Positions 7,801 through 35,200 of a DNA stretch of 64,000 bases are shown here, piece by piece. The notes below the pieces were generated by a model. The model was not told where the DNA came from, did not search any database, and saw nothing but the letters and a program-made list of their open reading frames with translations. Source of the DNA: Yuukianura sp. NJ FZ-2021. Taxonomy: Eukaryota. The DNA is taken from positions 2,542,001-2,606,000 of the forward strand of contig CM102288.1 of the NCBI GenBank assembly GCA_046563655.1. The letters run 5' to 3'. Position 1 is the first letter of the stretch. The number at the start of each line of letters is the position of its first letter. Made by a program: the position numbers and the translations under genes.

Positions 7801-10142
7801 TCAAAAATTTACAACAAATTTTTTTTTGTCAAGAACTGCAATTTTTTTTATCTAAAATTTCTCTTTCTAGGCGCTTATGCTCATATATCCGACCGTGATT
7901 TTGAAAATGACCAAATTATTCGGTAAATTTATATTGTTGTGCTTCAACACCGTTGAAAATTTATATTATTTTCACTTTGTTAAAAAAATTTGAACCTGAC
8001 TTTTATTTCAAGCGGCGTTTTTGTTTATTTTTACTTTTCTCAGATCTGCCGGTGAAAATCCTGATACTTGTTCGGATATTGCCGAACAGTTGATTCTGAG
8101 CGACCCTGGAAGGAACATTAACGTAAAATTTAGCATAATACGGCTTCTAAACATCATTTAACAGTCAGAGGTCAAAGGTCAACTTTGGTCCAAAGGTAAT
8201 TCTTGGTGGTGGACGACGTGAGTTGACCCCCAAGACAACTCCTGACATTGAGACGAAACAGGCAGGAAGACGCGGAGATGGAAAAAATTTAATTTCAATG
8301 TGGAAGGATTTGAAGAAAAAAGCAAAAGCCAAGTACGTTTCAAATCGGGATGGACTCATGGCCATCAACGCATCAGAAATCGACTACCTCCTCGGTAACT
8401 TCAAAATTTCAAAATGTCAAAATTTTCAAATTTTGGAGAGAAAAAACATGTTTCTGAAAAATGAAAAATTGTTTTTCAGGCTTGTTTTCATATGATCACA
8501 TGGACTACGGTAAGACACACAAAATTCATCATTGAGCTTCTGCGCTTTTGTGTAACTGTTGTAAACAGGGAAAGTATTTTATGTAAATCTTCACTCAAAG
8601 CTTTGATTGGCGTCTGGCCTTTGACTTTTGAAACGAAGAATGTCCATCCATTCTAATTCAATTCTAACCTTAACCCTAACCTAAATGTTAGGTTTTGGTT
8701 GGAAGTCGAGGTTCTCCTAATGTTCAATTTTATTTTGTGACCTGGACAGTGATGGACGCTGATGCTTCGGCGGATCCCAGTTTGCCTGAAATGACCAAAG
8801 TGGCAATTGATGTGCTCTCGAAGAACCCTAAGGGCTTCTTCCTGTTCGTTGAGGGTAAGAGAGTCCTTGCAGGACCATGCTGGAAGTGTCCCATTAGTCA
8901 AGGGCCCCTGTCACTTAATTCCTCTCTGTCTGTCTCTTTCAGGTGGACGGTAAGTATAGTGCCCACTTTCTCTCCTCTTCCTTGTCCATTCACAACTTTC
9001 TCTTTCAGAATCGACCATGCTCACCATTCCACCAAGGCTCAAAAGGCTCTCGTAGAAACCATTTCCATGGACGCTGCAGTTGGTACGCATTCAAAAATGC
9101 ATTCATGATTCATAAAAAAAAATCCAAAAATTTCAACCAAAAAATCTAAGTGCATCTTGTGAATTTTTTACTTTCACTCCAAACTGCATTTCTTGCACTC
9201 AAAAATTCACAAACTTTCACTTTTGAATTTAGCCACTGCAGTTGACATGACCAAGGAACAGGAAACACTCATCGTCGTAACTGCAGATCACGCTCATGTC
9301 ATGAACATCAGTACGTCCAGAAATTTCAAAATTTCAGAAAAAAAAAATTCAAAATAAGAAAATAAAATCAAAATTTCGAATTATGTCTCCCTAGATGGAT
9401 ACCCTCAGCGTGGAAATCCAATTTTGGGTTTCGCCGGCATCTCTGACATGGATGATCTTCCGTACACAACTCTCACGTATGCCAATGGTCCAGGCTACAA
9501 ACATCCAGAAGAAAATGGAGAAAGATATGATCTCACCAATGACAATCTAGGTACACGTTTAGCATAAACTAATTAACTTACCTCATTCTAGTCTGACTTA
9601 CACTAACTAATCTAATCACTTTCATCCTAACATGACTCAATTAAAAGTCTCCGACCCTTGACCCTGACTTTTCCTGAAGCACTTTCTCTTTCCATAGTAG
9701 TTCCAGGAATACTCCAAAATGTCAAGTTTTCTTCTAATTTAATGAAACTTTGAAGAGAGCCTTCATAGTTTTTGAAACTCTATTTGAAATTTCACTTTTT
9801 GAACTTTTCAAAGTTTCCGTGTCCTTAATTAGAGTTAAGTTGAAAAGAATTCAAGTTTTACAGAAACACTTGTTCTAAAAAACACTTTTCAAAAAATTTC
9901 ACTTTTCAAAAAAAGTTTTCACTTTTTCACTTTCTCTTTCTCTCGTATTTCCAGAACATCCTGAGTACATGCAGATGACCGGAGTTCCACTGCAGTCCGA
10001 GACACACGGAGGTGACGACGTTGTGATCTACGCCAGGGGGCCCTTTGCCCATCTCTTCAACGGAGTCCATCAACAGTCGTACATTCCTCATGCCATGGCT
10101 TATGCCGCATGCCTAGGAAACGGAAAGAAGTTCTGCTCGTGA
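4822..10142 (+). CDS. Alkaline phosphatase, signal peptide, no C-terminal GPI signal (about 17 exons)
   Basis: Spliced motifs: [22 protein letters not shown] signal peptide; [27 protein letters not shown] (catalytic Ser); [52 protein letters not shown]; ends [18 protein letters not shown] (10140-10142). The first two small exons (4822-4927, 6283-6351) are less certain. Confidence 0.93.
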
Positions 10143-11081: not shown

Positions 11082-14000
11082 ATGTTGACCCACCAGTACT
11101 TTCCGAGAAGAGTGGCATCGACTAGCGTAGGCAAGCGAGTGAGACACAGTGACTGTCATGGTCCACCGTCCTCCGCTGGACCAGGAACGGCTGAAGGAGG
11201 CGGTCAACTGGACACGGTTTCTCAGGGCTCAGTCGGAAGTGAAAGTTCTACTTTTGTAGGAAAAGGAAGGAGAAGAGAAAAAGTAAGATTCAAAAAAATT
11301 GAATTTTTTTTTAATCCAAAATCTTGAATTTTTGTGAAAGTTCCACTTTCATAGGAAGTGGAAGGAAAAGAGAAAAAGATTTGAAAAGCTGAAATTTTTG
11401 TAATTCAAAATTATGATTTTTTTCTGCTCCTGTGCAGCTTGGTTTGTGTAACTTTGCGTTATCATGGCAGAAGGGCCGGAAGATGCAAACTGCCCAAATG
11501 CTAATTCTTCCTTTGATTCCAATTGTTGTCCTCGTGGGTCAAAATCTGCACACTCTTGTTGATACAATCAACTACCAAACGGAAGTGGCCGATGTAGACC
11601 GACAGGTCAGGTTTTGCAAAATTTCAAATTGCAAAATTTCAAAATTTTCATTCTTCTTTACTCAAAATTTTAAGGTTGAAATGACCTTGGCCATGGGAAA
11701 GTTTTGTACCGAAATTCAGTCCGAGAGAGCCCAAGTTTCTTTCTTTGTCTACACGAACACAACTTACAACGGGTAAGTCTCAAAATTTCAAAAATCTCCA
11801 AATTGCTCCGAAATTTTCAAATTACTCCAACCTTTTATGTTTTCCATTTCCAACTTTTATAAAATTGGACACCTCTTGTTTTTCTCCGCCTTCGCAATGG
11901 TGAAAGCACAAAATTACATGAGGGGGATGTTTTTAAGCGTAGGTTTTTCCCACTGCCCCGCAGGGAAACGTTTTGGCATGTACAGAAAAAATTAGTTTTT
12001 CAGGAGGAAGTGGGTTAGGTGGGACGTGGGTGATCCACTTTCACTTGCAGAAGTTAAATTTTCAAAAAAGCTCCACCGAATTCAAGTGATGGAAGAAAGA
12101 CAAGTGGCTCAAGTGGGGCTCGTGGGTCCGTGATGAATTAAGGAAGTTTGGGATTTCAGTACGAGACACTCCACAGAAGTCCTTCACTTTCACTTCCACT
12201 TTTCCCGCCAAACTTTCTCCAGACACAAACGGAATCTCGTAATCCTCTACCACATCTTTTACCTGTCCCATCCACTTCCTTACATCACCAGAACACTACC
12301 CGTTTCAATTTAAATTTCATTTGGACCTCACCCTTTCAAGTTTTTTTACACTTCAAACGACTTCTGTGACCTCCTGGATGACCTCTGTATTTTTTTTTGT
12401 TAAGTTGAGGTGGAAAAACGTGGAGTTTTTTAAAACTTAGCTTTTGAGTTGAAATGAAAGGAGACAAAAGATGAAAGAGATGTGAGTACTGTTTTCATTT
12501 GCTTTTTCTGTGTAAATTTGTTTCAAAAGGTCAAATTTGTCGACCCAGTTTGATAAAACGGATGCAGCTCTGGACCGAATCACTGATTGGCCACCAGCAA
12601 CAAGAATCCAAGATACTGACAGAATTTTTGAATCCAAAGCAAGATTTGAAATTCGCTTGGATGACTTTCGGTAATTTGATTTTTACTTTAACAAGTACAA
12701 AATGAGACTACAGTTGTTCGTTTACTTAATTTTCTCCGAAGAGTGAAAATTTTTTAATTGTTTTCACTGTTGCAGTGAAAATTGCAGTTTTCAAATTTGT
12801 TTTCCAAATTTAAGTTCTCTTCGGTTTGGATTTTGATTTTTTGTCATTTGTTCAGAAAAAAAATTAGTACAGAGGATTCAAGCATCTCAGAGGTACTGGA
12901 GTATTGTGAGTTAAAAATTTCGAAATCTAAAACATTTTTTTGAATTTCTATTCTAAAAAATGTTATGTTGAATATTGCCTCTTTGGAATTAACAAGATAC
13001 GAAGATAAATCATCACATGTTGGAGTACTTGACGAAAGAAATCAAGGAAACAAATAGCACGAGCGTATGGAGGTAAAGAATTCATGAGTCGTGTAGTTTT
13101 AAAGTTAGTTAACAAAATTTAATTAATATAAATCGTATTTAATTAAACTTAAAAAGTTGCAATGTGAAATGTCAGGCATCCAATTGTTTATTGAAATCGT
13201 TCATAATTTAGATCTTCACGTTTTTTCAAAGTTAGAAAAAATTTCATGTTCATAACGTCGTGCGACGCTTTGACATTTCGCGTTTGTGATTCCGAATATG
13301 TTAAAGTAAATTTAATTTACCTTAATTCACTTTTAATTAATTGTTGATTGTGATTAATTAACAGTTTCCTGATTGCCTACAAGAACATCTTGCGGTCAAT
13401 AGAAAACGTTGGGATTTCGATTGTCTATGGAATCAACTACTTTGGGTAAGGTTTCATTAAACTGAGCAAACGCAGAAGAGGTTGTTGCGGCCATTTTGGT
13501 TTCAAATAGGTTTCCGTTTTGGTTTTTGGAGGCGTAAAGTACTGTTATTTTGAATAAATTTAAATTTAGTTGTAATATAAATCAAGATTTAGTTATGAAT
13601 AACGTGAATAAAATAGAGGACTACACTAGGTTGTATAGTAATTGCTCATTTTCTAGTTCTGGATGCCAGATACTGCTGGATACTTGCCGGGTCTCAGCTG
13701 CTTTTTGAAAACACTGCTTCGTATACATGGTTTGAGGTCGTAATGTATTTTGGAGTGTTATTTTTCAATGTCTAAAAGAGCCCTTAAAGGCTTTCTACTG
13801 AACGAAGGTGAAAGTGAAGATAGATTATGACAAGTATTGTGTTCTCTAGTGCATCATTCCAACTTAACATCTTTATGTTACTATCTTTTTTCATCTACAA
13901 CTTTTGTTTTGGTTTTATTCCAGGCGAGGTGTCCTCTCTCCCACAAATTACGTAAAGTACATCCGGCATGACACGCTTGGCATGGAGTACTTGAATGGAT

Positions 14001-17000
14001 CCATGGAGTTTGCATCTTCAGTCAAGGATTATTACAAAAATATCGGAGAAAGACTCGACCATGATGGCCAGATTCAACAAACGTAAGAAGAGACCTTAAA
14101 CTGCAGAGACATGTCTTGAAAGTTGAAATTATTATGTGGACGAACGACTATATCCCATGACACGGCGTGACAGTTTCCCTGCGACACAAACTAATGTTAT
14201 AAGGAGGCTACCGTAGAAAGAGAAAGTTGAAGTTATGGTAGTGATGGTCGTAACTTCTCGTCTAGGAAAGAAAGAGCCAGTGAACATTTATTATTGTTCC
14301 AGTTATTTACGACTGATCCTCCTCAAATAATCTACTTGAACTAACTCTACTCATGCTCTTCCTCTGTCCAGGAAACTTCGGATTCTCCAAAACTTGAAGC
14401 AGCCGCCTGCCATTGAAGATGCCATTAGTTACTTTGAAATGATGGCGAGTTACGTTGATGAACTGAGGCAACTCCAAGTTTTACTTCGTAGACGAATCAG
14501 GTAGGATCTTCATTAGAATCATGTAACAACTTTTGGTTAACAACTGGAACGTGTTGGAGTAACATGAGAATGCTAATCTAGTCAACACGAAAGGAGTTAT
14601 TTCATGTGTATGAAATATTTTTGGCAAACTTGTCATATTTAACTTCCAGGTTGGCAGTTGAAGAGCGTGTGGATCATGCAGACACTCAAGTACTGTTGAC
14701 GATCGTGGTCGTGATCCTTGTTACCATCCTGTCACCAATTATAATCTTTCTGGTTCACCGTGCAACCACCACCATTCAAATCTTTGCTACGAATCTTCTT
14801 CGAAAGGCAGAAGAGTTAAAAAAGGAAAAGAAAAAGTCTGATCGTCTTCTCTTTCAAATGTTGCCACCATCCGTAGCACAGGAATTGAAGCAGAAACGTC
14901 AAGTTCAGGCTCAAATGTACGATCAAGTGACGATTTACTTTTCAGACATCGTGGGTTTTACGGAAATTGCTGCCGAATGTAATCCACTTGAAGTCGTTAC
15001 TTTTCTCAACTCCATTTACAAACTCTTTGATGCCAGAATTGAGCGATATGATGTCTATAAGGTTGAGGTAAAAACTTTCTCTCTTACTTTCTCCATAAAC
15101 TTTTTTCAAAAAAAAAAATCAAAAAAAGAAAAAAAATTGTAGAGCTTGAATTCCGCCCGCATTTTTACCGAATTTCTCCCTAGTGTTAAGGGCTCCTAAA
15201 GTTTCAAAATTTTTAATCGACTTTTTTTTTCAGACAATCGGTGATTCCTACATGGCAAGTTTTTTGAAATTTACTTTTAAAAAAACTGAATTGGAATTCT
15301 TTTTGGAAAGTTTTATTAAAATCAGTGTGTTTCTTGTATTTCAGGTCGCATCTGGTAAAACTTTTGGACGATTTCTAGAAAATCAAGATTTTTTGTTGGA
15401 CTTTAGAACTTTAGTAACAAAGTCCATAATGCTAAACGTATTCTTTTGTTGTACCTTTAACGCTCTGCTCTTCTAACCATGTTGTACCCATTTACTTTCC
15501 ATGTTCTTCTTCTTGTGCAAATATTGGCCCTTACCTCCGCCACTTCACACTTCTGACTTTCTATCTTGAAGGCCTTCCAGTTCCCAATGGGAAAATCTGT
15601 GAGTGAAATCCGAAATCACTTTCACTTTCCGAGCTTTCTCCTATTTTTTCCCGCCAAATCCTAAGGTTAAGCCAAACCTAAGCTAAAGAGTTTAAGAAGG
15701 TGCCAGAGGCAGACGGGGGGCTCTCCACATCCTTCCAATTTCCAATTCAAGATGCTCATTTTTCTCTTTTGTGTTTGCTCTATCGCCTACGTTTCTCTTC
15801 TTCATCTTTAACACTAACGGAAAAAAAAGGTATGAATCACATTTCGGAAGTAGCCACAATGGCACTAGATCTTCTGGCAGGTTCCGTCATCTTTCAAGTA
15901 CCGCATCGTCCTGGTAAAATTTTGGCTTTCTATTGTCAAACTTTTCACATCTTTTCAAATTCAATCTTATAAAATTCTGTCTTTTCTCTTTTGGAAAAAA
16001 TGTGACTAAATTTGGCATCTTGAGTCTAAAGTTTCCTTGTGTTTTTTTTTCAGGAGAGAAACTACAGATTCGGATCGGGATTCATACTGGATCGGTTGTA
16101 GCAGGAGTTGTTGGTAACGAATCGCTTCAGCGAACAGCGTAGCAGCTGAAAATGGCGCTGATTAGTTCTGAAGTTTCTCTTTGAAACATTGGAAAATGCT
16201 GTGAAAAAGAGGCTTAAGCCTCATTATTAGTTTCCAAACATTTTGCGAATTTTCTTTTCAACAGATCCAAGCCGCGATGAAAAGAAAATTGGCCAAAGCC
16301 GCTAGAAATTAATCGGCTTGAAGAATTTCTGCGGAAAGCTAATATTAGACGGCTTTACAGTTTTTGGAAAAGTTTGCGGTAGTTTTTGTTTCAAATTTTG
16401 AGATATAAAAGCTTTGTACTGTTTTTAAAAAGAAAGGAAAAGGAAAGTACGAAATCCTTAGTAAAACTTTTCTTTTCTTCTACTTTTTTTTTCTCAAGTT
16501 GAGACGTAAAGACAGTTTGGAAAGCTTTTAGCCTTCATCCGATTACAGTCACTAAAACAATTAGTAGAAAGAAAAAATCGGCGCGCGTTTGACGCTTGAC
16601 GTTGTTTCGCGAGCTAAAGTTAGACGCGAAGAAAGCGATGCGTCACCATCAATTTCTCCTTTTTCTTAGGAACTAAAATGCCAAGGTAAGGTTCACATAC
16701 TTTCACATTTCCAACAACATTTGACCTTTGACCCGCCTTTTCCAGAATTCCGGAAATTCCTGAATACTCCAAAAAAATTCTGAAGCGACCATACTTGAAC
16801 CTTGTTTATTTTGTTCTTCACGGCTATTTACAGGTACTGCCTATTTGGAGATTCTGTTAACGTAGCGTCACGAATGGAAACGACTGGAGAACGTGAGTTT
16901 GCTTTTACTTTTCTTTCAAAAAACGAAAAAAAGGAGTTCAAATTTTTCATTTTTGGTATTTGCCCAGCACATGCCAATTTATTTACTACACGATTTGGGA

Positions 17001-18599
17001 TAAAAATTTCTTCTTTTGCTTGAGAGTTGCTTTAAAAATAGAATCGACTGGAAGGAGAAAAGAACCGAAAAGACTTTGATTTCCTTTGAGACTGAATTTT
17101 CCACAAAAAAGAAACTTTTTTGTTCGAAATTTTCAGAACTTACTAAATTTTTCTGTGAACTTTGAATTTGAGTTGCTCCTAATCGGCTTTACTTTCACTA
17201 AATCCTCCTGCTGTCCACCATGAATTTTAGTCTACGATCTTCAGAATTCAATTGAAAGATCAGTTACTTATGAAATTCGAAATTCCAAAACTTTCTCTCT
17301 TCTTTAAAAAAAATTAATACTCTTTAGTGGTTACGTTAAATTTAGACGCACATTTGAACTTGATACTTTTATAGCTATAATGGGCACGTGTGGTTGAAAT
17401 TTTGTCTTTTTGTAATGCGATCTCGTTCTTTGTTCATGATTTACCGTAAATCTTCAAATAACGCCCTGAAAATGGTGCCCCCTTTCCAAGAACCTCTCTC
17501 CCAGAAGTCACCGAAGCAATTAAGTGCCCCGGGCAGTTTGAACATTTACGGTACCTAAAATATGTTTTAGCTCTGCGGATTCACGTTAGTTTGGAAATGA
17601 AGTTGGCTCTGGATGCAATTGGAGGGTTCCGCGTTGAACATCGAGGACTGATTGAAGTGAAGGTAAAGAGCTTTCAGTTACTTTCTCTTTGACTGTAGGT
17701 TATGTTCTGACGTTCATTGGGGCTAAATAACTTAGGTTGAAGCCTAAAGGAAAAGTTCCACCACTAACACTTTCTCTCTCTCTTTCGGTTGCTCCGCTCG
17801 ACAGACCGGAATCAATCACCGCAAAGGGAATTTTAACTCTCACTTTCCTTTGTTCTCCAAAAAAGCTTAAAAACAGATCATATTTCACCTTTTTAGGAAA
17901 ACATTTAGAATACCGCCACTATCAAAACTGTTGCAGCACCCCATTAAAGCTTTGGAAGCTCCTGCGTCAGGAATTTTGAGGAATTACGATTTTTCTATGC
18001 GTTCGCTACCACTCAACCCTACAAAATATCAAATTCTTTGAGTTTTTACACCTTGGTACGAAACAATTTTCCAACTTTAAGTTCAAGCGGGATTGAAAAG
18101 TTGGAACTAATTTATTTTTTGATCGACGTTTAGCACAATTTTTGAAATTCGGAATTCCAGAATTTTTGAAATGTGGAGAAAGTGTTAGCATGCAAGGTGC
18201 ATGTTAGCAAAAAGGCGGTGAAAAAAGAGTTGAGTTGAGACATTTTCAAAAATTTGGATCTGGAAATGCGTGTTTTGAAAATTTGACCTTGTGACCTATT
18301 AGTTCCTTTAACAAAACCGGGATCAATTACTAATTTTGTTTCTGTTTTTTTTACTTACAGGGAAAAGGACTAATGGATACATACTGGCTCTGTGGAAAGG
18401 TAAATGTGGAACTACTGGATGCTGGAACTTCCTGGAAGTTATCTTAATTAACTTAATTTGTTTGTAACAACGTAACATGTGACTTCTGTTTCATTTGTTG
18501 TAGGATGGTGGACTTCCAGGACGTTCCGTGGAATTGGATACGCCTGGATTTTTTGACAGTACGCAGCCAGCCTATTTGGCTGATCTGGAAGATGAGTAA
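11082..18599 (+). CDS. Membrane guanylyl cyclase 1 with NIT-like extracellular domain (NIT-GC type; about 20 exons; start codon tentative)
   Basis: TM1 ([14 protein letters not shown]), helical domain with EIQSERAQ motif, TM2 ([22 protein letters not shown]), coiled coil [15 protein letters not shown], catalytic core FSDIVGFT...YKVETIGDSYMVASG...[21 protein letters not shown]...[14 protein letters not shown]-specifying Glu/Cys present; TAA 18597-18599. 11082 is the first in-frame ATG; an upstream exon is possible. Confidence 0.9.
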
Positions 18600-19474
18600 C
18601 TAAGGGAACTAATTTGTAATAAGTCGAAGGTTAGACTAAAAGTCGGAATTGTCTGATTTGTATCAGATACTTTCACCCAGTTTCTTTTTCCTTCAGGAGC
18701 CCAATTTTGCTTGGAATTAATAAAAGGCCATGCGTTTTCTACACTGACAACCAAATAAAAAAATACAATTTTTTGATTTCTCCAGAGTTTTTCTGAGAAA
18801 GAAAAAGAAAGTAAGTTATTGGAAAGTTTGTGTTCGGAAATGTGATCTGTGATGGGATAATAATGAGGATAGAAATGGGATCTTCTCTGGATGAACCAAA
18901 ATTTCTAATGATCTTTCATTTTGATTGGTAACTTCAGGAAAAAAACATTTCTGTTCAGAACAAGCTAACCCGCACGCCATTTTTTTGCGTTCTGGAACAT
19001 AATAAAAAGATGTCGACATTTTAGTCCAAAGCGTCATTCCATTCGTAGTGATTCCCGTTTTGGGAAGCTTTCTCAAAATGAAGATTTTCAAAAAAAATTT
19101 TGAGGAAAATTTTTAAAACAAGAGGTCCTTGATTTCAGTTCAGTGACTTTGGTTAAGGAGTGATGAGCGATCAGAAACTTCCGCTTTTTTATAACTTTGT
19201 TCACACTGTAGGAGTGAGTGTGGCAAAAACTTGAAAAAGTGAAAGTGAAGTGAAAGTTTTTCGGAATTCATGGTTCAAACTTGATAAGTTTTGACATAAA
19301 AATGAAAATGAAACGACCATAATTTCCTTTAAAAAATCAACTTTTCTTTTCTTCTCTGAGAATTTTTTAAGACATTTTTTTTAGAAAGAGTTGCTTAGAA
19401 AACTTTTGTTTCAAGGAAAAATTGGATTTTCAGTCAACTTTTTTTAAAGTTTTTTTTAGAACTTTCACTCTAGA

Positions 19475-22400
19475 ATGTCAGGGGTTCAGGTTGATAATGG
19501 GAGTAGGTCAGTAGGGTCATTTCAGTTGACCCCAAAGCCCACCAGGGTCAAGGGGTCAAAGTCAGATGAAGAGTGTGAGTCCAATAGTCACCATTCGTTG
19601 ACTTCCGGTGAAGAGGGAAGTTTGATTTCAATCAAAACTGGTTGTTTGAAACTGTCTCCGGGGTCATCTGGAGGTCAAAAAATACAAATGATCCAGATGA
19701 TTCTGCTTCCGTTCATTCCTATCATGGCGCTCGTCATTCAAAATTCAACAATGCTCAACACCATTGTTGTCTCTCTGTCTGAAGCACATGAAATTCAACA
19801 TCAAGTAAGCCTTTAATGGTCAATGACATCGTGACCTCTGACATTTGACCTCTCAATTTGCTCAATCGCAGCTCCATTTTGTTATTTCCAATTCCTCGAC
19901 CGACTCAATTCATCAGTTTTTGGTAGATGAGATGGATTTTTGTCGGATTAGCTGAAAATTGGATTACTACGTTTTCTCAATTAAAAAAAAATCGGTTTTT
20001 GGATTTTTTTAGATTAGTTTAACAGTTGAAGTCGGACGACTAATTTCGGCGCTGCAATTTGAACGAGCGACAACTGCTTACTACATTTTTACAAATGGAA
20101 GTCGGTATGTCCGTTGTCCATTTTGAAACCACAAAATTACTTGTCTTTTGATGTTTTTGGAGAAAGCGACAAAAGTAAAATGGGTGCTCAGTCACCACGG
20201 TTTTACACTGTTAACACTAAAACCGTTGTGGGTTTTTACGTTCCTTTAGGGACAAATTGGAAGAGCGATTTTTAGAAACAGACCGTGTGATTCGAAATGT
20301 GACTCTTCTGGAACATCACATCGTCCGTGGAAAAGTTACGTTCCAGAAGCATCTGTTGGAACTGAGGTAACCTTAGGCTATGCTCAACGTACTAAAAACC
20401 TAAACTATTCAAGATTTAATTCCAAAAAGTAGAACTCCATTTCATTTAAATTTCCAAATTTCCAAACCAGAATGACTCCATCTATCCATATTTAATTTTG
20501 AAATGTGGCAGTGAATGTGAATTAGTTTTTGAATGAAGTCCTTACTCTAGTGTGCCATTGGATAGTGTGTCAGTTGGCATCTGTGGTAGCGTGGGTTCGA
20601 GTACTACTGTTCTGGTGAAAGTAGAAAATGAAGGTCTCTAGGGATGAATTTTCCCGCCTTGGCAAAAAGGAATCCTTTTATTTGAAATGTATTTTGAAAT
20701 TTTGAATTAACAATTCATTTCATAATCTCATCCTATTCTTATCTGGACGCTTCAAATTCCATTTGTGTGCAAATGACACTAGCGTTTTATGAAGTGCAGC
20801 ACGGGGGAAAACTTTTCTCTTTTCTTTGTTTGAGTTTTGTATTTTTTTTTTGAATTTCAGCCTCAAGAGGAACAAAATTTTGAATTTGACGTAAGTGACT
20901 ACTTGAGTTTTGTTATTTTGTAACCCATTTTGTTAAAAATCAAAGCATTGTTTAAATTTTGAACATTTTGAATGTGGTTTTAATTTTGATGGTATTTCTG
21001 TTTCGAATTCGTTTCATGTTTGAAACGCTCTGAAGCAGTCAAAAGTCGATTGAGTCTGACGATGCTGCTTTGAGCGAGATGATTTGGTAAAGAATTCCAG
21101 AATTTTGAAAATTTCAATTCAAAAAAATTTCATTTTCACGTTTTCTTTAACATTCTAGGTACAATGTAGCTACGGATGTCGTCCAGGAACAACTTTCTTC
21201 TCGAATTCGAGAATCATCTTCAACTGGAACTTGGAAAAAGTGAAAAAAATCATAATGAATTTGAATTTTGAAAAAAAAAAAAATTTGCATGAGCGTTATA
21301 CAATTTTTGAATGTTCACGATTTTTCTTTCTAAAAATGCTTTTTTCCACTTTTTTGAAAATGTTAATTTAGTTTGATTGCCTACATGAACATCATTCGAT
21401 CAATTGAAAACTATTCGATTTCTATGATTTATGGACTCTACTACTTTGGCAAAGGATTTCTCAGCAACAACTCCTTCATCCAATTCTGTCGCTACGACAG
21501 TCTTGCAGAAGGTACTTGACATTAAGGTCAAAGGTCACCAAATCTTGAGTTAGCTTGATAATTTTTCTCACTCTTTTGTAATTTTAGACTACTTAAACGC
21601 AAGTCAGTCCTTCTCTCCGGAAATCACTCGGAACTATGACTACTTTTACAAAACATTTGACTTTTATGAAGAGCTGGAGCTAAGGTAAGGGTACCCCTTC
21701 CTCAAGGGCCCCTCAAAGCCATTTCTTTTAAAAGTGCTAAATTGGTCCTTGGATTTCATCTTCTTAAGTGGAGATTTGGTGAACAGGCGAAGGAAGATCT
21801 ACTCCAATAAGCCCATCACTCCGAGTCCAACGGATGCATCGGAGTACTTTGCCAAGATGACTCTCTACATTGACGAACTGAGGAGATACCAACACGGGGT
21901 CAGAGAAATTGTCAGGTTAGGCTAACTTTTTACATCAAAGGTCAAAGGTCAACTTCATGACCCTCTGGCATTTCACGTTCCGGAGGGGGAACAGTAGATA
22001 GTTTGGGCGTAATGAATTCATTAGCTAAACTTTTTTGCTTTCACTTTGATCTCTTAAATTTTTGTTTTTTTTTAAAGTTCAAAAGTTTCAGAAGAAATTA
22101 CAACGGCAAGAACAAAGCAAGCGTTGGCTGCTGGGTTACTGACGCTTGTTCTCAGTATTTCACCAATCATTATCGTCCTTGTTCGCAATATTACACATAC
22201 GATCCAAGTAACACACAATTTTCAAAAACTATCATAAAATTCAAAAATAATATAATTGTTTTGCTTTTGAACTGTTCACTAATAGGCGTATGCTGGGAGT
22301 CTCATTTTCAAAACAACTCAGCTGAAAAGAGAAAAGAAAAAGTCGGATCAACTCTTGCGTCAAATGTTGCCTCCGTCCGTAGTCAAGCAACTGCGTCAAA

Positions 22401-25400
22401 AGAAACAAGTTCCTGCAGAAAATTTTGAATCTGTCACAATCTACTTCAGTGACATCGTCAGCTTCACTAAACTTTCATCATCTTCTTCTCCAATGGAGGC
22501 AAGCGATTTTTTCTCGAAAATAACTCAAAATTTTGAAATTACAAATTCCCAACTCTTTTTTCTTCAGATCGTAGTGATGCTAAATTCGCTTTACAAACTA
22601 TTTGATTCCAAAATTGAGCACTACGATGTCTACAAAGTAGAAGTAAGATTCATTTCAACCCTTTCAGAATTTTCCCACAACGCAGCAACAGATATTTTAA
22701 TTTTAAAGTTTTACTTTGATGTTTTTTGTTGTAGACAATCGGAGACGCCTACATGGTCGTGTCAGGTAACAAATAAAACTAATTAAAAGCATTCATTTTT
22801 TTAGAAGTTCAAAAAAGTTTTTATTTTCAAAAAAGTTGTTTTTTGTTTTAAATTGTTTTTGAAGGTCTACCAGACAGAAATGGGACAAGGTTAGAAAAGT
22901 GAAAGTCAGTCACTCTCAAGTCGTCCTCATTATGATATGTTGAACAATTTCTTTTGTAAACCCATAGACATGCTGGTGAAATCTGTACAATGGCCCTCGA
23001 CTTATTGAATGGAGTTCGGCTTTTTGAAATTCCACATCGTCCAGGTAGTCTTTTTTTAACTAATTTTCAAATTTTGAAATCTCTTATACCAATTTTTTGA
23101 TATTTCACAGGCGACCGATTGCAAATTCGAGTGGGGGTCAACACTGGAGCTTGTAAGTTTCCCATTCGGAAAGTAAAATCTAGTTCTTAATTAACAAAGT
23201 TTTTAATTACAATTAATTTAATTAAATAACTTAATTCAAATCAACAGCATGTTGAGTGTTGACTGCATGCATCTAACTACTCGAATTGTATACGATATTG
23301 GAAAACTTTCTACCTCTTGTTACAGGCGTTGCTGGTGTCGTTGGAACCAAAATGCCGCGCTACTGCCTATTTGGTGTAAGTTTTTTTTTAAATGAAACTT
23401 TCTCCTGCTTGTTTTAAATTCCCAACTGTTTTGAAAATTTCCCGCTCCTTTCATTAACGGCTAATCTATTTTTTCTAATTCCAAAGTCTAGAGTAGTAAA
23501 GTAGTTTTTAGAATTAACTGAAGTCGTTAAATGGAGAAAGTGTTATGATTTGGAGTCCAAATCCTCCTGGAATCCGTTCCTTTTAATTCAAATGCAACTT
23601 GCGGAGTGCTTTTTCAGCGTTTAATTGAGTCTTATCTCTTCGTTCCACTCCTGTTCAAAATCCTACCTTTTACATTTCAGTTCTAAAAAGCTAAATCCAA
23701 ATCCCTCCCCCAAAATGCCCAGGGAGAAAGAGACAAAGTGTTGACTTTGTTCGTCCTTCCGCTCTAAAAGTGAAAGTCTGTTCATTCATTCTTCTGTCAC
23801 TTCTTACTTAAGTCACTTTCAAATTTTTATAAATTTCGCAATTTGTTAAAAACTGAACATACCAACTACGGACATTTCGTCATTTGGAAATTTTCTGGAG
23901 AAAGCCATTGTTTTCGCAGTTTTTATTTTGTCGCGGTTTTCCAGAAAATAATGTTTTCCAGAAAACTAAAAAAATAGTATAGTTGCGTAGGATTTTTGTT
24001 GAAGAAAGCAGCAGGTGAAAGTTTGGGAATTCTGGGAGAGTTTCTCCGTTTTCCTTCTCGTTGTTTACGGAGGGACAACAGTACTTGCAGTACGTAGGAA
24101 CCAGAAAGAGCGGGAAAGTTGATTAGATTCAAAACCATAAAGGAACATATTACTTTCTCCACCACTTTCACTCCAGCTCCTTTACCCTCAACCTTCAATT
24201 TACGAAAGCGCAGAGTAATAAGCTGCCGACGGCAGTTGTGACGGCGTATCCATTCACACCAAACCAACTCACCGCCGGTGAGTTGGACGACGGAAGAGAA
24301 AGTTGACGGCGGAAGACGGGTGAGGTGTTCACATTGCCTCACGGCTGCCGCCGTCACATTTTACGCCGTCAACTCTTCCTACAGGAGGAGATGGGAGCCC
24401 CGAAAGTTGAAAAGTTTCAACTTTTGGACCAACTCCGGCCGGACAGTTCCCATCTCATCCCAGCTGATCATCCTTCCCCCCTTCTTTCTACATAATCAGC
24501 AGAACCAAAGTAGCAAAACAAAAGAGTAACATTGTTTAAGTGCTAATTAACAGTTAGTTAAGCTAATTAACTATTAATTGTGTCTTAATACATCACCCTA
24601 TAGGGAAATACGTAGCTATACTTCCCAAAGCACAGTAATGGAACAATTGCACATCAGTAATTGTAATCATTTGGTAGTTTTCAATTCATCTACTTCATTT
24701 GTTGTCCCATATGAAACTGAAAGGCGCCTTTCAAGAATTGTGACCAAATGACGCTGTATCACACCGAGACCGGCGTATAACTTTCCGTAGAAAAAATTTA
24801 CGGCGTAAAAAGAACCGGTGGTGCAGTGTGAAACCCTTCAACAACTATCTACGGCAGTTTGTTACGCCGGCACAACTGCCGTCGGCAGTTGTTGCGGCGT
24901 ATCCAGTGTGAAAGAGGCTTTAAGGGCGAGCTCATGTGCCCTTTTACCCATTATCTACCGCAGTTCCGCTTGGGCTTTCACTCAAAGTCGGACCACCACT
25001 AAGTTTCAGTTGAAGGTTTAGGCTTTGGGTTAGTGATGTTCGGCTTTCCTCGTCAAACAAAATTGTATTTAGGAGAAAGGCAATAAGTAAGAGTAAACTT
25101 CGGCCCAGGGGAGAGGAACTGCCTTGAACTACTAAGACGTTTCATAACCTTTACGACCTCCATAACCTTACCTAGTCTAACTTTCTCTTTTTTATGTAAG
25201 AACCAGTTTATTACTTTATGTTTCTATGGTCATTGACGGAATTGAAACTGAAATGGAATTGGTACACTTCCGAGTTTAAGTAACTTGGATACAAGGTTAA
25301 TGCTAAAGTAATGGAAATTTAATATAACTAAACTAATAAAATACAAATGTCTTTAGGACAGCATCAATACTGCCAGTAGGATGGAATCTACTGGAGAGCG

Positions 25401-26021
25401 TGAGTGAAAAGTTTTGAAATTTAAGTTTCAAATTTTAAGAAAACTTTCTCCTTAGATTTGCTTGTGCGACTTCAGTTGCATGCAATATTTTTCGCAGTTC
25501 TCTCAAAATTAGAACTTCCAATTTGGAAGTTTGAAACACTTTTTTGTCACCTTTTTTGAAATTGCAGCAATGAAAATACATATCACACAAGACACCAAAA
25601 CGATTCTGGATGATCTCGGAGGATTCATCACAGAATCACGCGGATTTATTGACATCAAGGTACTATTTAAAATTTGTAAAAAAAATCAAAAGCTGTAATT
25701 TCACCCCAAACACTTTCTTTTGTGCAGGGAAAAGGAACAATGCAAACTTACTGGTTGACTGGAAAGGAGGGCGGTTTGCCACGGTGTAAGCCGAAGACTT
25801 TGAATTTTTAAAATTTGAAATCTATTTCAGAAAATACTGAACTTTTTTTTTTCAAAATAGCCGTGGAAATGAATACGCCTGGTTTTTTCAAACCGACTTC
25901 CTACGTCCCAGAATTCCTCAAAGAAATTTTTGGAAGTGAAGATGACGACACTGAAGTTCCAGTTCCTCCTCCCCCCAGAAGTAGCAAATCTGTATCACAA
26001 GTACCAACTCTCTCCAAATAG
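19475..26021 (+). CDS. Membrane guanylyl cyclase 2 with NIT-like extracellular domain (tandem paralog; about 21 exons)
   Basis: TM1 ([14 protein letters not shown]), [11 protein letters not shown] motif, [23 protein letters not shown]2 ([21 protein letters not shown]), [74 protein letters not shown] 26019-26021. Confidence 0.92.
24222..24923. mobile_element. Degenerate non-autonomous DNA-transposon relic in the large GC2 intron (possibly PIF/Harbinger-type)
   Basis: 18-bp inverted repeat CTGCCGACGGCAGTTGTG (24223-24240) / CACAACTGCCGTCGGCAG (24871-24888), iterated GACGGC/GCCGTC motifs, right end CAGTGTGAAAGAGGCTTTAA; matching left TIR not seen. Confidence 0.4.
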
Positions 26022-32269: not shown

Positions 32270-35200
32270 TCAAATGACAGTGACCGAGTGATTGACCCGG
32301 TCCACAGCAAAAATATTTCCATTGGCAGTTGCAATTCCTTCAAGGCCCTTGAACTCCTGATCTCCACCCCAGCTCCCAATGGACTTTACAAACACTCCAT
32401 CAGGAGAAAAGATCTGAATCCGATTGTTTCCTAAACACAAAACAACAACAAAGTTAGACTTATACTGACAGTGACCTTAGTTTTGACCTTTCGTTTGCTC
32501 AAATGCCCTCATAACTAAAATGTTCATTCTCCATGAATTTTTTATGAGGAAGATGATGATGATGATGATGTTGAGCCTGGCAAGTCCATTTGAGGATTCT
32601 CTAAGTACTTGACACCCGATCCAACCCTAATCGCCTTCTCAACATCATCAAGACACAAAGACTATTCTGAAATGCATCTTAAGATCTTTTGAACCTTGAA
32701 GGTTCCATTGTGTATCATTCTGAAGGGGGTAATGGGGCTACTTAATTGCGAAGGGGGTCTTAGGGGGGGGGACTTAATCGCCTCTATTGTCCACTTTCTC
32801 CAAAGAGAAATGTTTCTTATAAAAATAATTGTGGGAAAACTTGCCTGAATCTCCAACAACGATGTAGCCCGACTCATCTACTGCCACGCCCCTACGGATA
32901 AAAATTTGACTTAAGAATTTTTTAGGATTTTTCGAATTTTAGATTAAGTGTTTCCCAAAAAGAAAAAATTAGCATTCCTTTGTGCGAAAGAGTTAAGATT
33001 TGGAAAAGTGAAAGTGATTTTGTGTTTGGTAGTCAAACGGTTGTAAAAGCTTTTTGTATTAAAGATTCGCGCTTTGTTAATTAAGGGAGCAGGTGAGGCA
33101 GAAGGAGAGCCCTTCAAGGGCCACTTTTGTTTTTAAATGTTTTTCAATTTTCTCCGTTACAGGGAGAAAGTTGGTAGGAAAAAGAACACACGACGACCAC
33201 GGCAAAAGAGATCAAAATAGGCAGTGGAATTTTAATTGAAGAGGGAGAAAGCAAAGCAATTGTTCTAATTCGAAATTTCAACTTTTTGCAGAGAGATAAA
33301 ATCTTAAACTTTCTCCCAATTTGGAATACGGAAACCACAATTTTCTTTAGTGTGATTTTGAAAATGTAACGAAAGAAGAAATGCTAACTGGAGGACCACA
33401 GCACGAATTCGGTTCTATGCGATTTTTTTTGACAAGTCTGATAAAAAAAAAGTAGAGAAAGCAGCAGCATTAGCATAGAAAAGAAGAAATAAAAGTTTTG
33501 AGACAAAAAATAACTCAGAGTGGGTGGTGAATTTTTTTCGTTTTTGCTAATTTGAAACACAGTTGGAGTCAAAAGTGTTTTCAAGATCAAAGTCTGTTCA
33601 TTTTTAGAAAGACAAAGAAAGCACGAATTGAATTCTTAGTATTTTTGTTACATTGCTGTGGTTGACACAAATTGGGATTGACTTTTTTCTTGATCTTCAA
33701 TTTTCAAAATTGCGTGGACGGAGAGAGGAAAAAACCGGCGGTTTTTTCCTCTTTGGTTTTCATTTTGAAAATAAAAAGTTTACAAGCCAAAAACTTTCAC
33801 TTTTTTTTTCTAAGAATTCGGTTAAGATAAAAAAGACAACAGAACAACAGATTTTGAAAAAACAAAACAAAAATTTCCGCAAGTTATTTTTGCGTTTCAT
33901 GTAACAATTTGTACAATTGACAAAAACATTTTTTGATCTCTTTTGGTATAGGATGCACGTGGATTATTAGTTTGTGTGTTCACACTGGTGGTAAGAGTCT
34001 TTTTGCCTCCCACTTTGACCTTTGACCTTCAAGGTCAATTTGAGGTCACGCTGCTACTTCCATTTTGACTACTTCAACAAAATCACCACACTTCTCGATT
34101 TGAAAAACAGTAAAATGGTAAACTCCATGTTGGCGCCAACTTTTAAATTTAAATTTGAACTGAATTCGTATTGTGTCCTTTGTAGCTTTCTCTTTCTCAC
34201 TTTTCCCTTTCACTTTCTTTTTGAGTGTGGTTTTCGTACCTGGGAGACTTTAAGAAGCCTTCGTCGCTTCCTTCCGAGCCAAAACATGACAAGACTTTTC
34301 CATTGACATCGAAGATTTGAATTCGTGAATTATTCGTATCAGACACAACGACTTTGTTCGTAGAAGTTACTGCGATGTAATGCGGATGCGACAACTCTCC
34401 GATCTTTGTTCCTGGACTCCCAAATTTACCCACAAAAGTACCGTCGGACTGGAACACCTAAAACCATAATTCCGTACCCTTAAGGGCCAATTCCCGCTTT
34501 CTAAGGGCCCAGCGACCGGCGCTGACGTAAACATACGACACAAAAAGCTTCTTCGAAGTTTATGAATTTGTAAAATTCTAGCTTTTGACTGTAAAGGTCA
34601 AAAGGTTTTTCGGTGGGAATTGAATTTTTTATGCAGTTTGGCCAATTTCAAGGAAAGAAACCGTCAGAGGCCGTCATTCCGTCAGCGCCCGTCATTTGAC
34701 GACCTTGGAAACTGCTGCGGTCATATTAAGAATGCATTTGACGGTTGGCCATTTTTCCTACCTGAATGCGGGATTCCTCACAGACGTAAATAAAGTTAAG
34801 GGCATCTGTTGTCACTCCAAGGGGATAGGAAAATTTCCCAGGGGCCTCCCCTTGACTTCCAAAGGCTCGTAAAAACCGTCCACTCGGATCAAAAACTATT
34901 TCGTACAGACAGAATTTTCAAAAAACGAGTGTTTTTTCAGAAATGGGGTTTTTGTGGTAGCCGTTTTCAAAAAAGAGGCCGTGAAAGTTGAATTTTCCAG
35001 CAGAAGCGACAAGATTTAAGTATCTTTTGAAAAACGATCGCAGTGTTTTTGTAATTTGAAATTCAAAGGGTGACGTGTTGACGCTCAGCAGAATTGTAAC
35101 GGGGGAGCTGCTGCTGGTTTGATTTTTGATGACAAAAGAATTGAGGACCCTAAAGGAACTTGCGTGACTGGAAAGTTCAACTTCCGAAACACCGATTTTT

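Follow-up and report, generated by a model that had tools for sequence, protein, structure and literature searches.

NIT-domain cyclases of insects and of sea urchin were already noted in 2006 by Anantharaman, Balaji & Aravind (PMC1592074). NIT-GCs across animals, with placozoan and bilaterian members, were described by Moroz et al. 2020 (PMC7400543), and two proteins of the annelid Platynereis, NIT-GC1 and NIT-GC2, by Jokura et al. (10.1101/2023.08.02.551600). According to the available text of the latter, NIT-GC1 gave cGMP after addition of a NO donor only with the NIT domain present, and the NO-donor assay leaves nitrite or nitrate possible as the true ligand. As far as the accessible parts of these sources go, NIT-domain cyclases are widespread in animals and one member, the annelid NIT-GC1, has been functionally tested, but none from arthropods.

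The original prediction that little functional work exists in arthropods is in agreement with this. The fly protein CG33958 is given as an orphan or 'inferred' receptor in the available text of PMC10248080 and PMC13267572, the latter with a list of seven fly rGC genes, and as a rule it appears among the orphan receptors, as 'uninvolved in NO reception'. The novelty of the finding was overrated, since insect NIT cyclases have been in the literature from 2006 on (PMC1592074), and precomputed Pfam annotations of NIT and Guanylate_cyc already existed for 116 of the 120 best database relatives.

The two genes reported here, named g1 and g2, are located within the window, i.e. the whole analyzed stretch of DNA of 64,000 nucleotides. 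The family itself is not new, and g1 and g2 are further members of the known NIT-GC family. Their value is incremental, since the family picture is unchanged by them. With the animal NIT-GCs they share the order of a transmembrane (TM) segment, NIT (PF08376), a second TM segment, a signalling helix and Guanylate_cyc (PF00211), as well as the lack of a kinase-homology or H-NOX domain, and g1 shares its clade with CG33958. They differ in being new sequences and in showing two old hexapod subfamilies, here named clade A and clade B, side by side; to each of these they add a springtail-like representative. Such an adjacency of two hexapod subfamilies was not found stated in the literature text searched, which covered Moroz 2020 and Jokura et al. 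apart from their phylogeny figures and supplements.

Gene models of the tandem pair

Two complete neighbouring genes of 20 exons each were found on the forward strand at positions 11082-26021. The tandem pair thus lies where it had been predicted, with g1 running from an ATG at 11082 to a stop codon at 18597-18599 and g2 from an ATG at 19475 to a stop codon at 26019-26021. Exons were placed by tblastn with four relatives, together with a search for junctions and a scan of the ORFs by a family HMM. The predicted coding sequences of 2025 nt (g1) and 2031 nt (g2) contained no internal stop. Each intron had an AG acceptor and a GT donor, with the exception of one GC donor per gene (after 15254 in g1 and after 22498 in g2). 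The coordinates of all features are given in Table 1.

Table 1. Features of g1 and g2 with their positions in the window
Feature	Position	Strand	Basis
g1, clade-A NIT-domain guanylyl cyclase, 674 aa, predicted start	11082..18599	+	20-exon model, stop-free
g1 exons 1-10	11082-11282, 11438-11605, 11675-11772, 12530-12670, 12856-12905, 12997-13072, 13365-13445, 13924-14082, 14372-14500, 14650-15067	+	
g1 exons 11-20	15234-15254, 15345-15354, 15572-15598, 15830-15913, 16054-16113, 16670-16685, 16834-16892, 17571-17662, 18361-18399, 18504-18599	+	
g1 TM1, residues ~86-108, basic stretch before	11492..11560	+	Kyte-Doolittle 1.83-1.87
g1 ectodomain = NIT domain, residues 112-380, exons 2-10	11570..14686	+	profile 322 bits
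g1 TM2, residues 382-404	14690..14758	+	Kyte-Doolittle 3.13
g1 signalling helix (coiled coil before cyclase)	14786..14887	+	Pfam HNOBA positions 183-216/216, 2.8e-07, 30.7 bits, on 14651-15067
g1 class III cyclase domain, exons 10-19	14903..18390	+	Pfam Guanylate_cyc 1.2e-15 on exon-10 part
g1 16-nt microexon, finishes conserved G-T-K-M-P-R of catalytic core	16670..16685	+	pattern search and reading
g2, clade-B NIT-domain guanylyl cyclase, 676 aa, predicted start	19475..26021	+	20-exon model, stop-free
g2 exons 1-10	19475-19804, 20013-20104, 20250-20366, 20861-20890, 21159-21239, 21372-21511, 21588-21684, 21769-21915, 22078-22207, 22286-22498	+	
g2 exons 11-20	22568-22642, 22735-22765, 22865-22889, 22968-23044, 23111-23152, 23326-23375, 25357-25399, 25568-25659, 25728-25785, 25861-26021	+	
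g2 TM1, residues ~72-94	19688..19756	+	Kyte-Doolittle 2.25
g2 ectodomain = divergent NIT domain, residues 102-357	19778..22114	+	profile 226 bits
g2 TM2, residues 362-384	22127..22195	+	Kyte-Doolittle 2.57
g2 signalling helix	22313..22393	+	Pfam HNOBA positions 190-216/216, 1.6e-05, 25 bits, on 22286-22498
g2 cyclase domain, exons 10-19	22409..25757	+	Pfam Guanylate_cyc 1.2e-05 on exon-10 part

The cyclase domain of g1 includes predicted microexons of 21, 10, 27 and 16 nt. The 16-nt microexon is flanked by AG and GT, and the reading frame is restored by including it. In g2 the cyclase domain is split by an intron of 1981 bp (23376-25356). The exon maps are of use because automatic annotation would probably miss the microexons of 10 to 27 nt, so that a broken catalytic domain would be reported.

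The two proteins were identical at 45.5% of the aligned positions (291/640). On the DNA level the repeat search found paralogue similarity in three short stretches only (32-85 nt, 72-79% identical), which argues for old duplicates and not for a recent copy. A recent duplication was also rejected based on the protein identity and on the separate tree clades of g1 and g2. Apart from these paralogous exons the repeat search gave nothing, and the Rfam and tRNA scans returned no families and no genes, respectively. The closest sequences of the protein collection shared at most about 64% identity with g1 or g2. The nearest relative of g1 was Folsomia P0008 (63.6%), and those of g2 were Folsomia P0126 (57%) and the partial Orchesella sequence P0129 (64.5%).

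Since the exons were picked by similarity to relatives, the models are biased towards an intact appearance. One of the copies could accordingly be decaying or non-functional, or a model could partly be an artefact of the fitting of exons. The dependence of the g1 model on two very short exons (10 and 16 nt) and on a GC donor, exon 4 of g2, which is six codons shorter than exon 5 of g1 and differs from it in phase, and an odd Ser in g1 (see below) would fit such a reading. However, in both models all 20 exons keep the frame, the splice sites follow the consensus and no stop is present. Furthermore, at least 90% of the relatives agree in 164 columns, of which g1 retains 147 and g2 151, and each gene groups with its own orthologues on a branch of normal length (0.47 and 0.34, respectively). 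We consider decay or artefact highly improbable.

Membrane layout, signalling helix and cyclase domain

The proposed layout of N-terminal tail, TM1, helical ectodomain, TM2, coiled coil and cyclase was borne out by hydropathy, profile coverage and the cyclase exons. On the Kyte-Doolittle scale each protein had two hydrophobic segments, at about residues 86-108 and 382-400 in g1 and 70-94 and 362-380 in g2. The ectodomain is helical, as predicted, and about 270 residues separate the two segments, slightly more than the expected ~250. The hydrophobicity of TM1 in g1 was only moderate (Kyte-Doolittle 1.87). In the family the segment is strongly conserved, with M, L-P-F, P, A-L-I and Q each present in at least 90% of 63 rows. 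Both TM segments are flanked by basic residues on their predicted cytosolic sides.

The N-termini are hydrophilic and, provided that the predicted start codons are right, TM1 begins 70-85 residues into the proteins. In agreement with the prediction it is therefore not a classical cleaved signal peptide, and this possibility was rejected for both genes. The expected lack of a kinase-homology or H-NOX domain was confirmed as well: among 13 relatives scanned with Pfam no match to ANF_receptor, protein kinase or HNOB (H-NOX) was found, and the window exons gave no HNOB match either.

In g1 and g2 the cyclase domain follows TM2 after a spacer of only about 50 residues. Here, matches to HNOBA were limited to its last ~30-40 of 216 positions and did not exceed the cut-off in clade B. 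A coiled coil in front of the cyclase has been assigned the role of a signalling helix (PMC1592074).

The motifs FSDIV, KVETIGD, RYCLFGD and ASRME (within the stretch N-x-A-S-R-M-E) were present in both g1 and g2, and in an orthologue alignment their residues were identical to those of ANP receptor 1. These motifs contain what we take to be the two metal-binding Asp, the GTP-selecting Glu/Cys pair and the transition-state Asn and Arg. The full set of catalytic residues predicted for both paralogs is thus complete. An identity as adenylyl cyclases was rejected on the basis of the Glu/Cys specificity pair in both proteins. The first 55 positions of Guanylate_cyc (PF00211) were covered by 14651-15067 and the first 30 by 22286-22498; relatives matched the full profile at about 1e-63 to 1e-68. 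Over the entire cyclase region g1 and g2 aligned gap-free with the family and the clade-B consensus, respectively. When the cyclase region of a Folsomia orthologue was compared with solved structures, ANP receptor 1 (9.3e-87) ranked before GC-C (3.5e-73) and soluble GC (2e-48).

The receptors of the ANP-receptor type (GC-A, GC-C) thus provide the nearest solved cyclase and coiled coil and share the catalytic and GTP-specifying residues. In contrast to them, g1 and g2 lack ANF_receptor, the kinase-homology domain and a cleaved signal peptide and have two TM segments instead of one. With the soluble GC alpha/beta they have in common a class III cyclase that follows a coiled coil matching the tail of HNOBA, and possibly a link to NO. 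They differ from it by the absence of the H-NOX haem domain and of the PAS-like part of HNOBA (~180-216 only being matched), by their predicted location in the membrane and by a full catalytic set in both paralogues. As originally noted, the succession of TM1, sensor and TM2, with a helix that transmits the signal to the cytoplasm, resembles bacterial chemoreceptors, and also sensor kinases, whose periplasmic domains are four-helix bundles. However, the output is a cyclase and not a methyl-accepting or kinase module, and in the fold search with models of relatives the ligand domains of the chemoreceptors McpZ (8F7N) and McpS (2YFB) reached a TM score of only ~0.2.

In our opinion g1 and g2 are probably intact, anciently duplicated NIT-GC receptor genes that work in the following way. 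The proteins would cross the membrane twice, with both termini in the cytosol. The outer part would be a NIT domain of ~270 residues, built as a double four-helix bundle like that of NasR, and the protein would act as a dimer by analogy with other receptor cyclases. Binding of a ligand in the NIT domain would be passed via TM2 and the short parallel coiled coil of the signalling helix to the class III cyclase domain, which would make cGMP. The sequence analysis shows the gene structures, the order of domains, the membership in family and clades and, for close relatives, the NIT fold. We infer the topology, the dimerisation, the cGMP product and the ligand, the last with the least confidence.

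NIT sensor domain and its possible ligand

The predicted (I/L)Q-x-ER-A pattern is present as EIQSERAQ in g1 and ALQFERAT in g2. Its Q-x-E-R positions are kept in at least 90% of 63 aligned family rows. In the first bundle Q-x-E-R was found in all non-gap rows (50/50 in clade A and 10/10 in clade B) and in g1 and g2.

The assignment to NIT is supported indirectly, with relatives matching Pfam NIT and their ectodomain models the fold of NasR. Pfam NIT (PF08376) has 239 profile positions and a gathering cut-off of 24.9 bits. Full-profile matches of the nearest relatives, which are 57-64% identical to g1 and g2, ranged from 1.7e-19 to 2.5e-26. In clade A these were P0008 (4.5e-22, 80 bits, profile 1-235), P0009 (1.8e-23) and the fly protein P0051 (2.5e-26, 94 bits). 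Relatives of clade B ranged from 1.7e-19 to 8.2e-09, with P0126 at the upper end (71.6 bits, profile 1-237) and P0125, P0134 and P0121 at ~1e-11. Single ectodomain exons of 30-52 aa (four of g1, five of g2) gave no NIT match at E<=1; these fragments are too short, and the result carries no weight against NIT. The assignment of g1 and g2 is by homology, since Pfam NIT was matched in the relatives and not in the window exons.

Against a profile of the ectodomains of 62 relatives, g1 scored 322 bits over positions 1-270 of 271. The ectodomain of g2, likewise matched from end to end, reached 226 bits with the all-family profile, 245 bits with the clade-B profile and 183 bits with the clade-A profile. 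The best of 400 shuffled controls scored 9.0 bits.

AF2 models of the ectodomains of the Folsomia orthologues had a pLDDT of 89.8 (clade A) and 86.6 (clade B). Their sole convincing match in the PDB was NasR (4AKK, probability 1.00), with TM scores of 0.76-0.80 for the clade-A model and 0.68-0.69 for the clade-B model; the runner-up did not exceed 0.38. When the Folsomia ectodomain was used as a single phmmer query on the sequences of the PDB, NasR was absent and four chance matches appeared (best E 0.072). The relationship is thus visible by the profile and fold routes only.

Models and Pfam matches of relatives suggest that g1 and g2 share the double four-helix bundle and the Pfam family with NasR and with the bacterial NIT sensors (Shu, Ulrich & Zhulin 2003, as cited in the sources above), and the Q-x-E-R of the first helix is conserved. 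In contrast, the identity to NasR is only 13-15%, the output is a eukaryotic cyclase and not ANTAR, MCP or a kinase, and the predicted place of the NIT domain is outside the cell, enclosed by two TM helices. The motif of the second bundle is altered too: the counterpart of Q-x-E-R reads E-N instead of E-R in g1 and g2. The residue after this Glu is variable in the family consensus, and both proteins retain the Arg of R-S-I-E-N in the same helix. According to the legend of Fig. 7B in Moroz 2020 (PMC7400543), conserved arginines on two interface helices are thought to bind the ligand in NIT domains. With the altered second-bundle motif, the bacterial ligand site may not be retained in g1 and g2. 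At the start of the second bundle the residue after the conserved Trp is Ser in g1, whereas it is Arg or Lys in 50/50 clade-A relatives and basic in 11/11 clade-B relatives. The ligand site of g1 may be altered at this position, or there may be an error in the model or the sequence.

As the ligand we would guess a small species of nitrogen oxide, i.e. NO or a derivative, nitrite or nitrate, because the one tested animal member, NIT-GC1 of Platynereis, points there. Such sensing would be an extrapolation from bacterial NIT domains and this one annelid protein. The chemosensory role of the original prediction is conjectural. A more specific reading is direct binding of extracellular nitrate or nitrite, instead of a sensing of NO, by the NIT domains, in which case the pair would report environmental or haemolymph levels of these ions. 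Both fold and Pfam family agree with the nitrate/nitrite sensor NasR, and the first-bundle Q-x-E-R is kept without exception in the rows given above. Additionally, this reading was proposed in the accessible text of PMC1592074 and PMC7400543, and the assay of Jokura et al. is compatible with it. However, in the available text of the literature searched no animal NIT domain was reported to bind either ion. The low identity to NasR, the different second-bundle motif and the lack of the basic residue in g1 speak against it as well, and we regard direct binding of nitrate or nitrite as possible but doubtful.

It is about as tentative to assume that the NIT fold now serves an unrelated ligand (for example a peptide, a metabolite or an ion), or that regulation is mainly intracellular, as it may be in the ciliary NIT-GC2 of Platynereis. 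This would fit the orphan status of the arthropod members (PMC10248080 and PMC13267572, in the parts available) and the phototransduction role, instead of NO sensing, that was assigned to NIT-GC2 in the accessible text of 10.1101/2023.08.02.551600. The clade-B ectodomain also evolves fast, with 28-36% identity to clade A (alignment A2) and long branches. On the other hand, the NIT core (Q, E, R, W, E and two Gly without variation) is strongly conserved in both clades as well as in the outgroups, a tardigrade and sea-spider set, which argues for a conserved small ligand site.

Two clades and their apparent linkage

In the careful tree clade A was supported by 99/99 and clade B by 100/99. The tree places g1 in clade A, together with Drosophila CG33958, and g2 in the faster-evolving clade B. 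Within each clade the springtail sequences, including the respective gene of the window, were sister to the insect sequences. By this topology the split between the clades is older than the divergence of springtails and insects.

Clade-A and clade-B proteins were located on contigs of equal reported size in all six species in which both were listed (Folsomia, Athalia, Cephus, Cryptotermes, Periplaneta and Ischnura). Furthermore, all five long Anopheles models had an A-like N-terminal and a B-like C-terminal half, in the same order as in the window. Adjacency in other species we infer from the equal contig sizes and these fused models. The linkage of the two clades thus seems to have persisted, with an unchanged order in the Anopheles gene models. 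Together with g1 and g2, the linkage elsewhere raises the question whether the A and B forms serve different ligands or act jointly.

Class III cyclases act as dimers. One answer, along the lines of the heterodimer in the original prediction, would be that the A and B proteins form an obligate heterodimer like soluble GC alpha/beta, in which two different NIT domains act on a single catalytic dimer. The old and conserved linkage and the age of the clade split are in line with this. However, obligate heterodimeric cyclases usually show complementary losses, whereas every catalytic and specificity residue is kept in g1 as well as in g2, so that neither protein needs a partner. Linkage on its own is weak evidence for binding, and nothing beyond it points to a heterodimer.

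The Drosophila matches of a search seeded with a g2 exon bear on the same point: with 61-63% identity all of them belonged to the clade-A type, and among the matches listed there was no fly protein resembling clade B. To our knowledge, CG33958 (P0051) is the only NIT carrier among the seven listed fly rGCs. Clade A therefore seems to exist, and to work, without clade B in Drosophila. Taken together, an obligate heterodimer is unlikely. A search with the clade-B ectodomain of P0126 returned four springtail proteins only, a low yield that is due to the word index, which needs shared 5-mers. The taxonomic spread of clade B and its possible absence in flies and beetles are thus drawn from thin evidence.

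A broader interpretation is that the A/B pair represents a conserved hexapod two-gene module, whose adjacency and order have been preserved for over 400 million years by the joint action of its products. We consider this improbable. If true, the products could assemble into a heteromeric receptor carrying two different NIT sensors, or could be a co-regulated pair tuned to different nitrogen-oxide species. It would also imply an arthropod membrane pathway from NO/NOx to cGMP that is independent of the haem-based soluble cyclase.

Two-unit models were found in Anopheles only, where two stretches each of NIT and of cyclase were present in the model scanned with Pfam (P0001). For the long models from Hymenoptera (~1300 aa) a fusion of A and B was rejected, since BLAST found a single NIT-GC unit in them; hymenopteran P0020 likewise carried one such unit according to Pfam.

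Gene models and cyclase architecture

The window consists of AT-rich eukaryotic DNA with short exons (GC 0.33-0.46), and pieces of two similar proteins were found in stop-to-stop ORFs within the 11082-26021 interval of the + strand. Exons were placed by tblastn with four relatives and a splice-junction search, and the junctions were read directly; for the second gene a family HMM was additionally run over all its ORFs. For each gene, the start codon was predicted as the earliest ATG in the first exon that could be recognised. The resulting models, here named g1 and g2, contained no internal stops. All introns had AG acceptors and GT donors with the exception of one GC donor per gene. The model ends agreed exactly with the original prediction, whose observation of tandem NIT-domain guanylyl cyclases (NIT-GCs) was correct: two intact genes with NIT-GC architecture are present at this place.

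In g1, the coding sequence for the catalytic domain is divided into very small exons, including four microexons, of which the 21-nt one carries the GC donor. The 16-nt exon was located only by a search for the conserved K-M-P codons. In g2, the same region consisted of fewer and larger exons. Since omission of the microexons breaks the conserved catalytic core, automatic annotation would probably mis-model g1.

Two further features of the introns were observed. Intron 1 of g1 holds a copy of the 3' end of exon 1 that lacks a GT donor (aligned block of 79 columns, 82% mean identity). Intron 16 of g2 was 1981 bp in size versus 66-494 bp for the remaining introns of this gene; it contains two ORFs without Pfam hit and may represent an inserted repeat or a mobile element remnant.

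Hydropathy analysis placed the membrane segments at residues ~86-108 and 382-404 of g1 and ~72-94 and 362-384 of g2, respectively, with an ectodomain of ~270 residues between TM1 and TM2 in both proteins. Basic residues at the N-terminal flank of TM1 and the C-terminal flank of TM2 would fit a cytosolic location of both protein ends. Within TM1, the residues M, L-P-F, P, A-L-I and Q were each present in at least 90% of the 63 rows of the family alignment, and g1 departs from them at three positions (F to L, A to V and I to V). As this conservation is unusually high for a membrane anchor, it suggests a role of TM1 in signalling or assembly.

TM2 is followed by a helix of ~35 residues which matched only the last 30-40 positions of the Pfam HNOBA profile, and Guanylate_cyc starts next. 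The spacing between TM2 and the cyclase domain is about 50 residues, leaving no space for a kinase-homology domain. Furthermore, Pfam hits for kinase, ANF-receptor and H-NOX domains were absent from all 13 relatives scanned. Both proteins retain the class III cyclase motifs carrying the two metal-binding Asp, the GTP-selecting Glu/Cys pair and the transition-state Asn and Arg. With the Folsomia orthologue as query, the closest solved cyclase regions were of the receptor type (ANP receptor 1, 9.3e-87; GC-C, 3.5e-73).

Upstream of g1, the match to Alk_phosphatase reaches the last profile position, so that this gene ends about 1 kb before g1. Downstream of g2, ORFs without family hits and an NHL-like ORF were found, followed about 18 kb from g2 by a GPCR gene. 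A run of long ORFs was located where the GC content of the window is highest (0.44-0.46) and had no significant Pfam hit except a borderline NHL repeat. Scans of the window for Rfam families and tRNA genes yielded none.

Coordinates of the features identified in the window
Feature	Position	Strand	Remarks
ABC transporter ATP-binding domain ORF	2155-3077	-	Pfam 4.2e-15; upstream of g1
Alkaline phosphatase exons	8151-10142	+	three ORFs, successive parts of Pfam Alk_phosphatase
g1	11082-18599	+	20 exons, 674 aa
g1 intron 1, copy of exon 1 end	11337-11381		~45 nt
g1 TM1	11492-11560
g1 Guanylate_cyc start, exon	14651-15067		Pfam
g1 microexon	15234-15254	+	21 nt
g1 microexon	15345-15354	+	10 nt
g1 microexon	15572-15598	+	27 nt
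g1 microexon	16670-16685	+	16 nt
g2	19475-26021	+	20 exons, 676 aa
g2 TM1	19688-19756
g2 Guanylate_cyc start, exon	22286-22498		Pfam
g2 intron 16	23376-25356
ORF in g2 intron 16	23923-24360	-
ORF in g2 intron 16	24242-24529	+
Run of long ORFs	34918-39438	-	one of 679 aa (37399-39438)
Rhodopsin-family GPCR	43960-45248	-	two adjoining ORFs, 7TM receptor profile 4.4e-22 and 2.9e-10

Indirect evidence for NIT identity of the ectodomain

The NIT assignment was tested indirectly, as Pfam and fold runs were performed on relatives and not on the spliced g1 and g2 proteins. None of nine single ectodomain exons gave a NIT hit in Pfam, which is expected for fragments of 30-52 aa. One g1 exon used as query retrieved 1690 relatives, and 116 of the best 120 had a precomputed NIT and cyclase annotation.

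Close relatives of both genes have the NIT fold and belong to the Pfam family. Full-length Pfam NIT matches were obtained for the proteins closest to g1 (Folsomia P0008, 4.5e-22; Orchesella P0009, 1.8e-23; the fly protein CG33958, 2.5e-26) as well as for those closest to g2 (Folsomia P0126, 1.7e-19; three insects, about 1e-11). A profile built from the ectodomains of 62 relatives scored 322 bits with g1 and 226 bits with g2 over essentially all 271 positions, compared to 9.0 bits for the best of 400 shuffled ectodomains. The AlphaFold models of the Folsomia ectodomains were all-helical and confident (pLDDT 89.8 for the relative of g1 and 86.6 for that of g2). Their only convincing PDB match was the reference NIT structure NasR (4AKK), with TM scores of 0.76-0.80 and 0.68-0.69, respectively; other matches reached at most 0.38. 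A plain sequence search of the PDB with the ectodomain as query did not recover NasR, and the relationship is therefore remote at the sequence level.

Based on the full-length Pfam matches of the relatives, the profile match of g1 and g2 and the NasR fold of the models, the initial NIT reading is indirectly supported and most probably right. The Q-x-E-R motif from which it started is real, and no other feature of the family is as highly conserved.

Two subfamilies and their linkage

The closest relatives of g1 were Folsomia P0008 (63.6%) and Orchesella P0007, those of g2 Folsomia P0126 (57%) and Orchesella P0129 (64.5%, partial sequence). These matches make a springtail or a closely related animal the probable source. 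A maximum-likelihood tree of 37 rows, calculated with a careful search and rooted with the tardigrade, separated two subfamilies. In clade A (support 99/99), g1 grouped with the remaining springtail A genes and with insects from many orders, among them Drosophila CG33958. Clade B (100/99) contained g2, the springtail B genes, Odonata, Blattodea, Hymenoptera, a psyllid and the C-terminal half of an Anopheles model; its inner order is unreliable because of long branches (Anopheles C half, Cacopsylla). Since springtails were sister to insects within each clade, the tree places the duplication before the springtail/insect split. A sea-spider sequence joined clade A with weak support (91/76), and with the tardigrade as root the duplication may be older than hexapods.

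In all six species listed with both clades and contig data, the A and B proteins were located on contigs of equal size, one of them a Cephus contig of only 489,546 bp. Additionally, all five long Anopheles models combined an A-like N-terminal half with a B-like C-terminal half, in the same order as in the window. Two NIT and two cyclase stretches were present in P0001, the one Anopheles model scanned with Pfam. These contigs and models may indicate adjacency of A and B in other species. Hymenopteran models of ~1300 aa were considered as A+B fusions as well and rejected. Flies apparently carry clade A without clade B, according to search hits and the account in PMC13267572. No third NIT-GC was found by tblastn within the 64-kb window.

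Putative signalling and ligand site

NIT cyclases were introduced by Anantharaman, Balaji and Aravind 2006 (PMC1592074) as a third guanylyl cyclase class of animals, present "in insects and sea urchins", which combines an extracellular NIT domain with a signalling helix and a cyclase; the authors proposed sensing of extracellular nitrogen oxides. Moroz et al. 2020 (PMC7400543) reported NIT-GCs with two TM segments flanking NIT from placozoans and from many bilaterians, arthropods among them, and the lobster genome paper mentions them as well (PMC8221624). In PMC10248080 and PMC13267572, Drosophila CG33958 is listed solely as an inferred or orphan receptor. In the literature searched, no paper was found on arthropod NIT-GC function or on the A/B pair; both clades may already be depicted in the phylogenies and supplementary material of Moroz et al. 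and Jokura et al. g1 and g2 are additional members of this family described since 2006, to which the apparently conserved pairing of A and B adds modestly.

From family knowledge, the products of g1 and g2 would act as dimeric receptors. A ligand would bind the outer NIT domain and the signal would pass via TM2 and the signalling helix to cGMP synthesis. The two proteins may form a heterodimer, as had been suggested, but their sequences lend this idea no support: each partner has a complete catalytic set, and clade A apparently occurs without clade B in flies (PMC13267572). The predicted chemosensory role is unsupported. Our guess for the ligand of these putative receptors is NO or a compound formed by its oxidation. 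In Platynereis, NIT-GC1 produced cGMP after addition of an NO donor only with its NIT domain, and the authors caution that the true ligand could be nitrite or nitrate (Jokura et al., 10.1101/2023.08.02.551600).

Two deviations were found at the putative ligand site. The second-bundle motif of g1 and g2 reads E-N instead of E-R. Residue 244 of g1, directly after the conserved Trp opening the second four-helix bundle, is Ser, whereas all 50 clade-A and all 11 clade-B relatives carry Arg or Lys at this position. No alternative g1 splice restoring a basic residue was found. Ser 244 could reflect a real change of the ligand site, but could also stem from an error in sequencing or from unusual splicing; its codon is split by intron 6 (13071-13072 / 13365).
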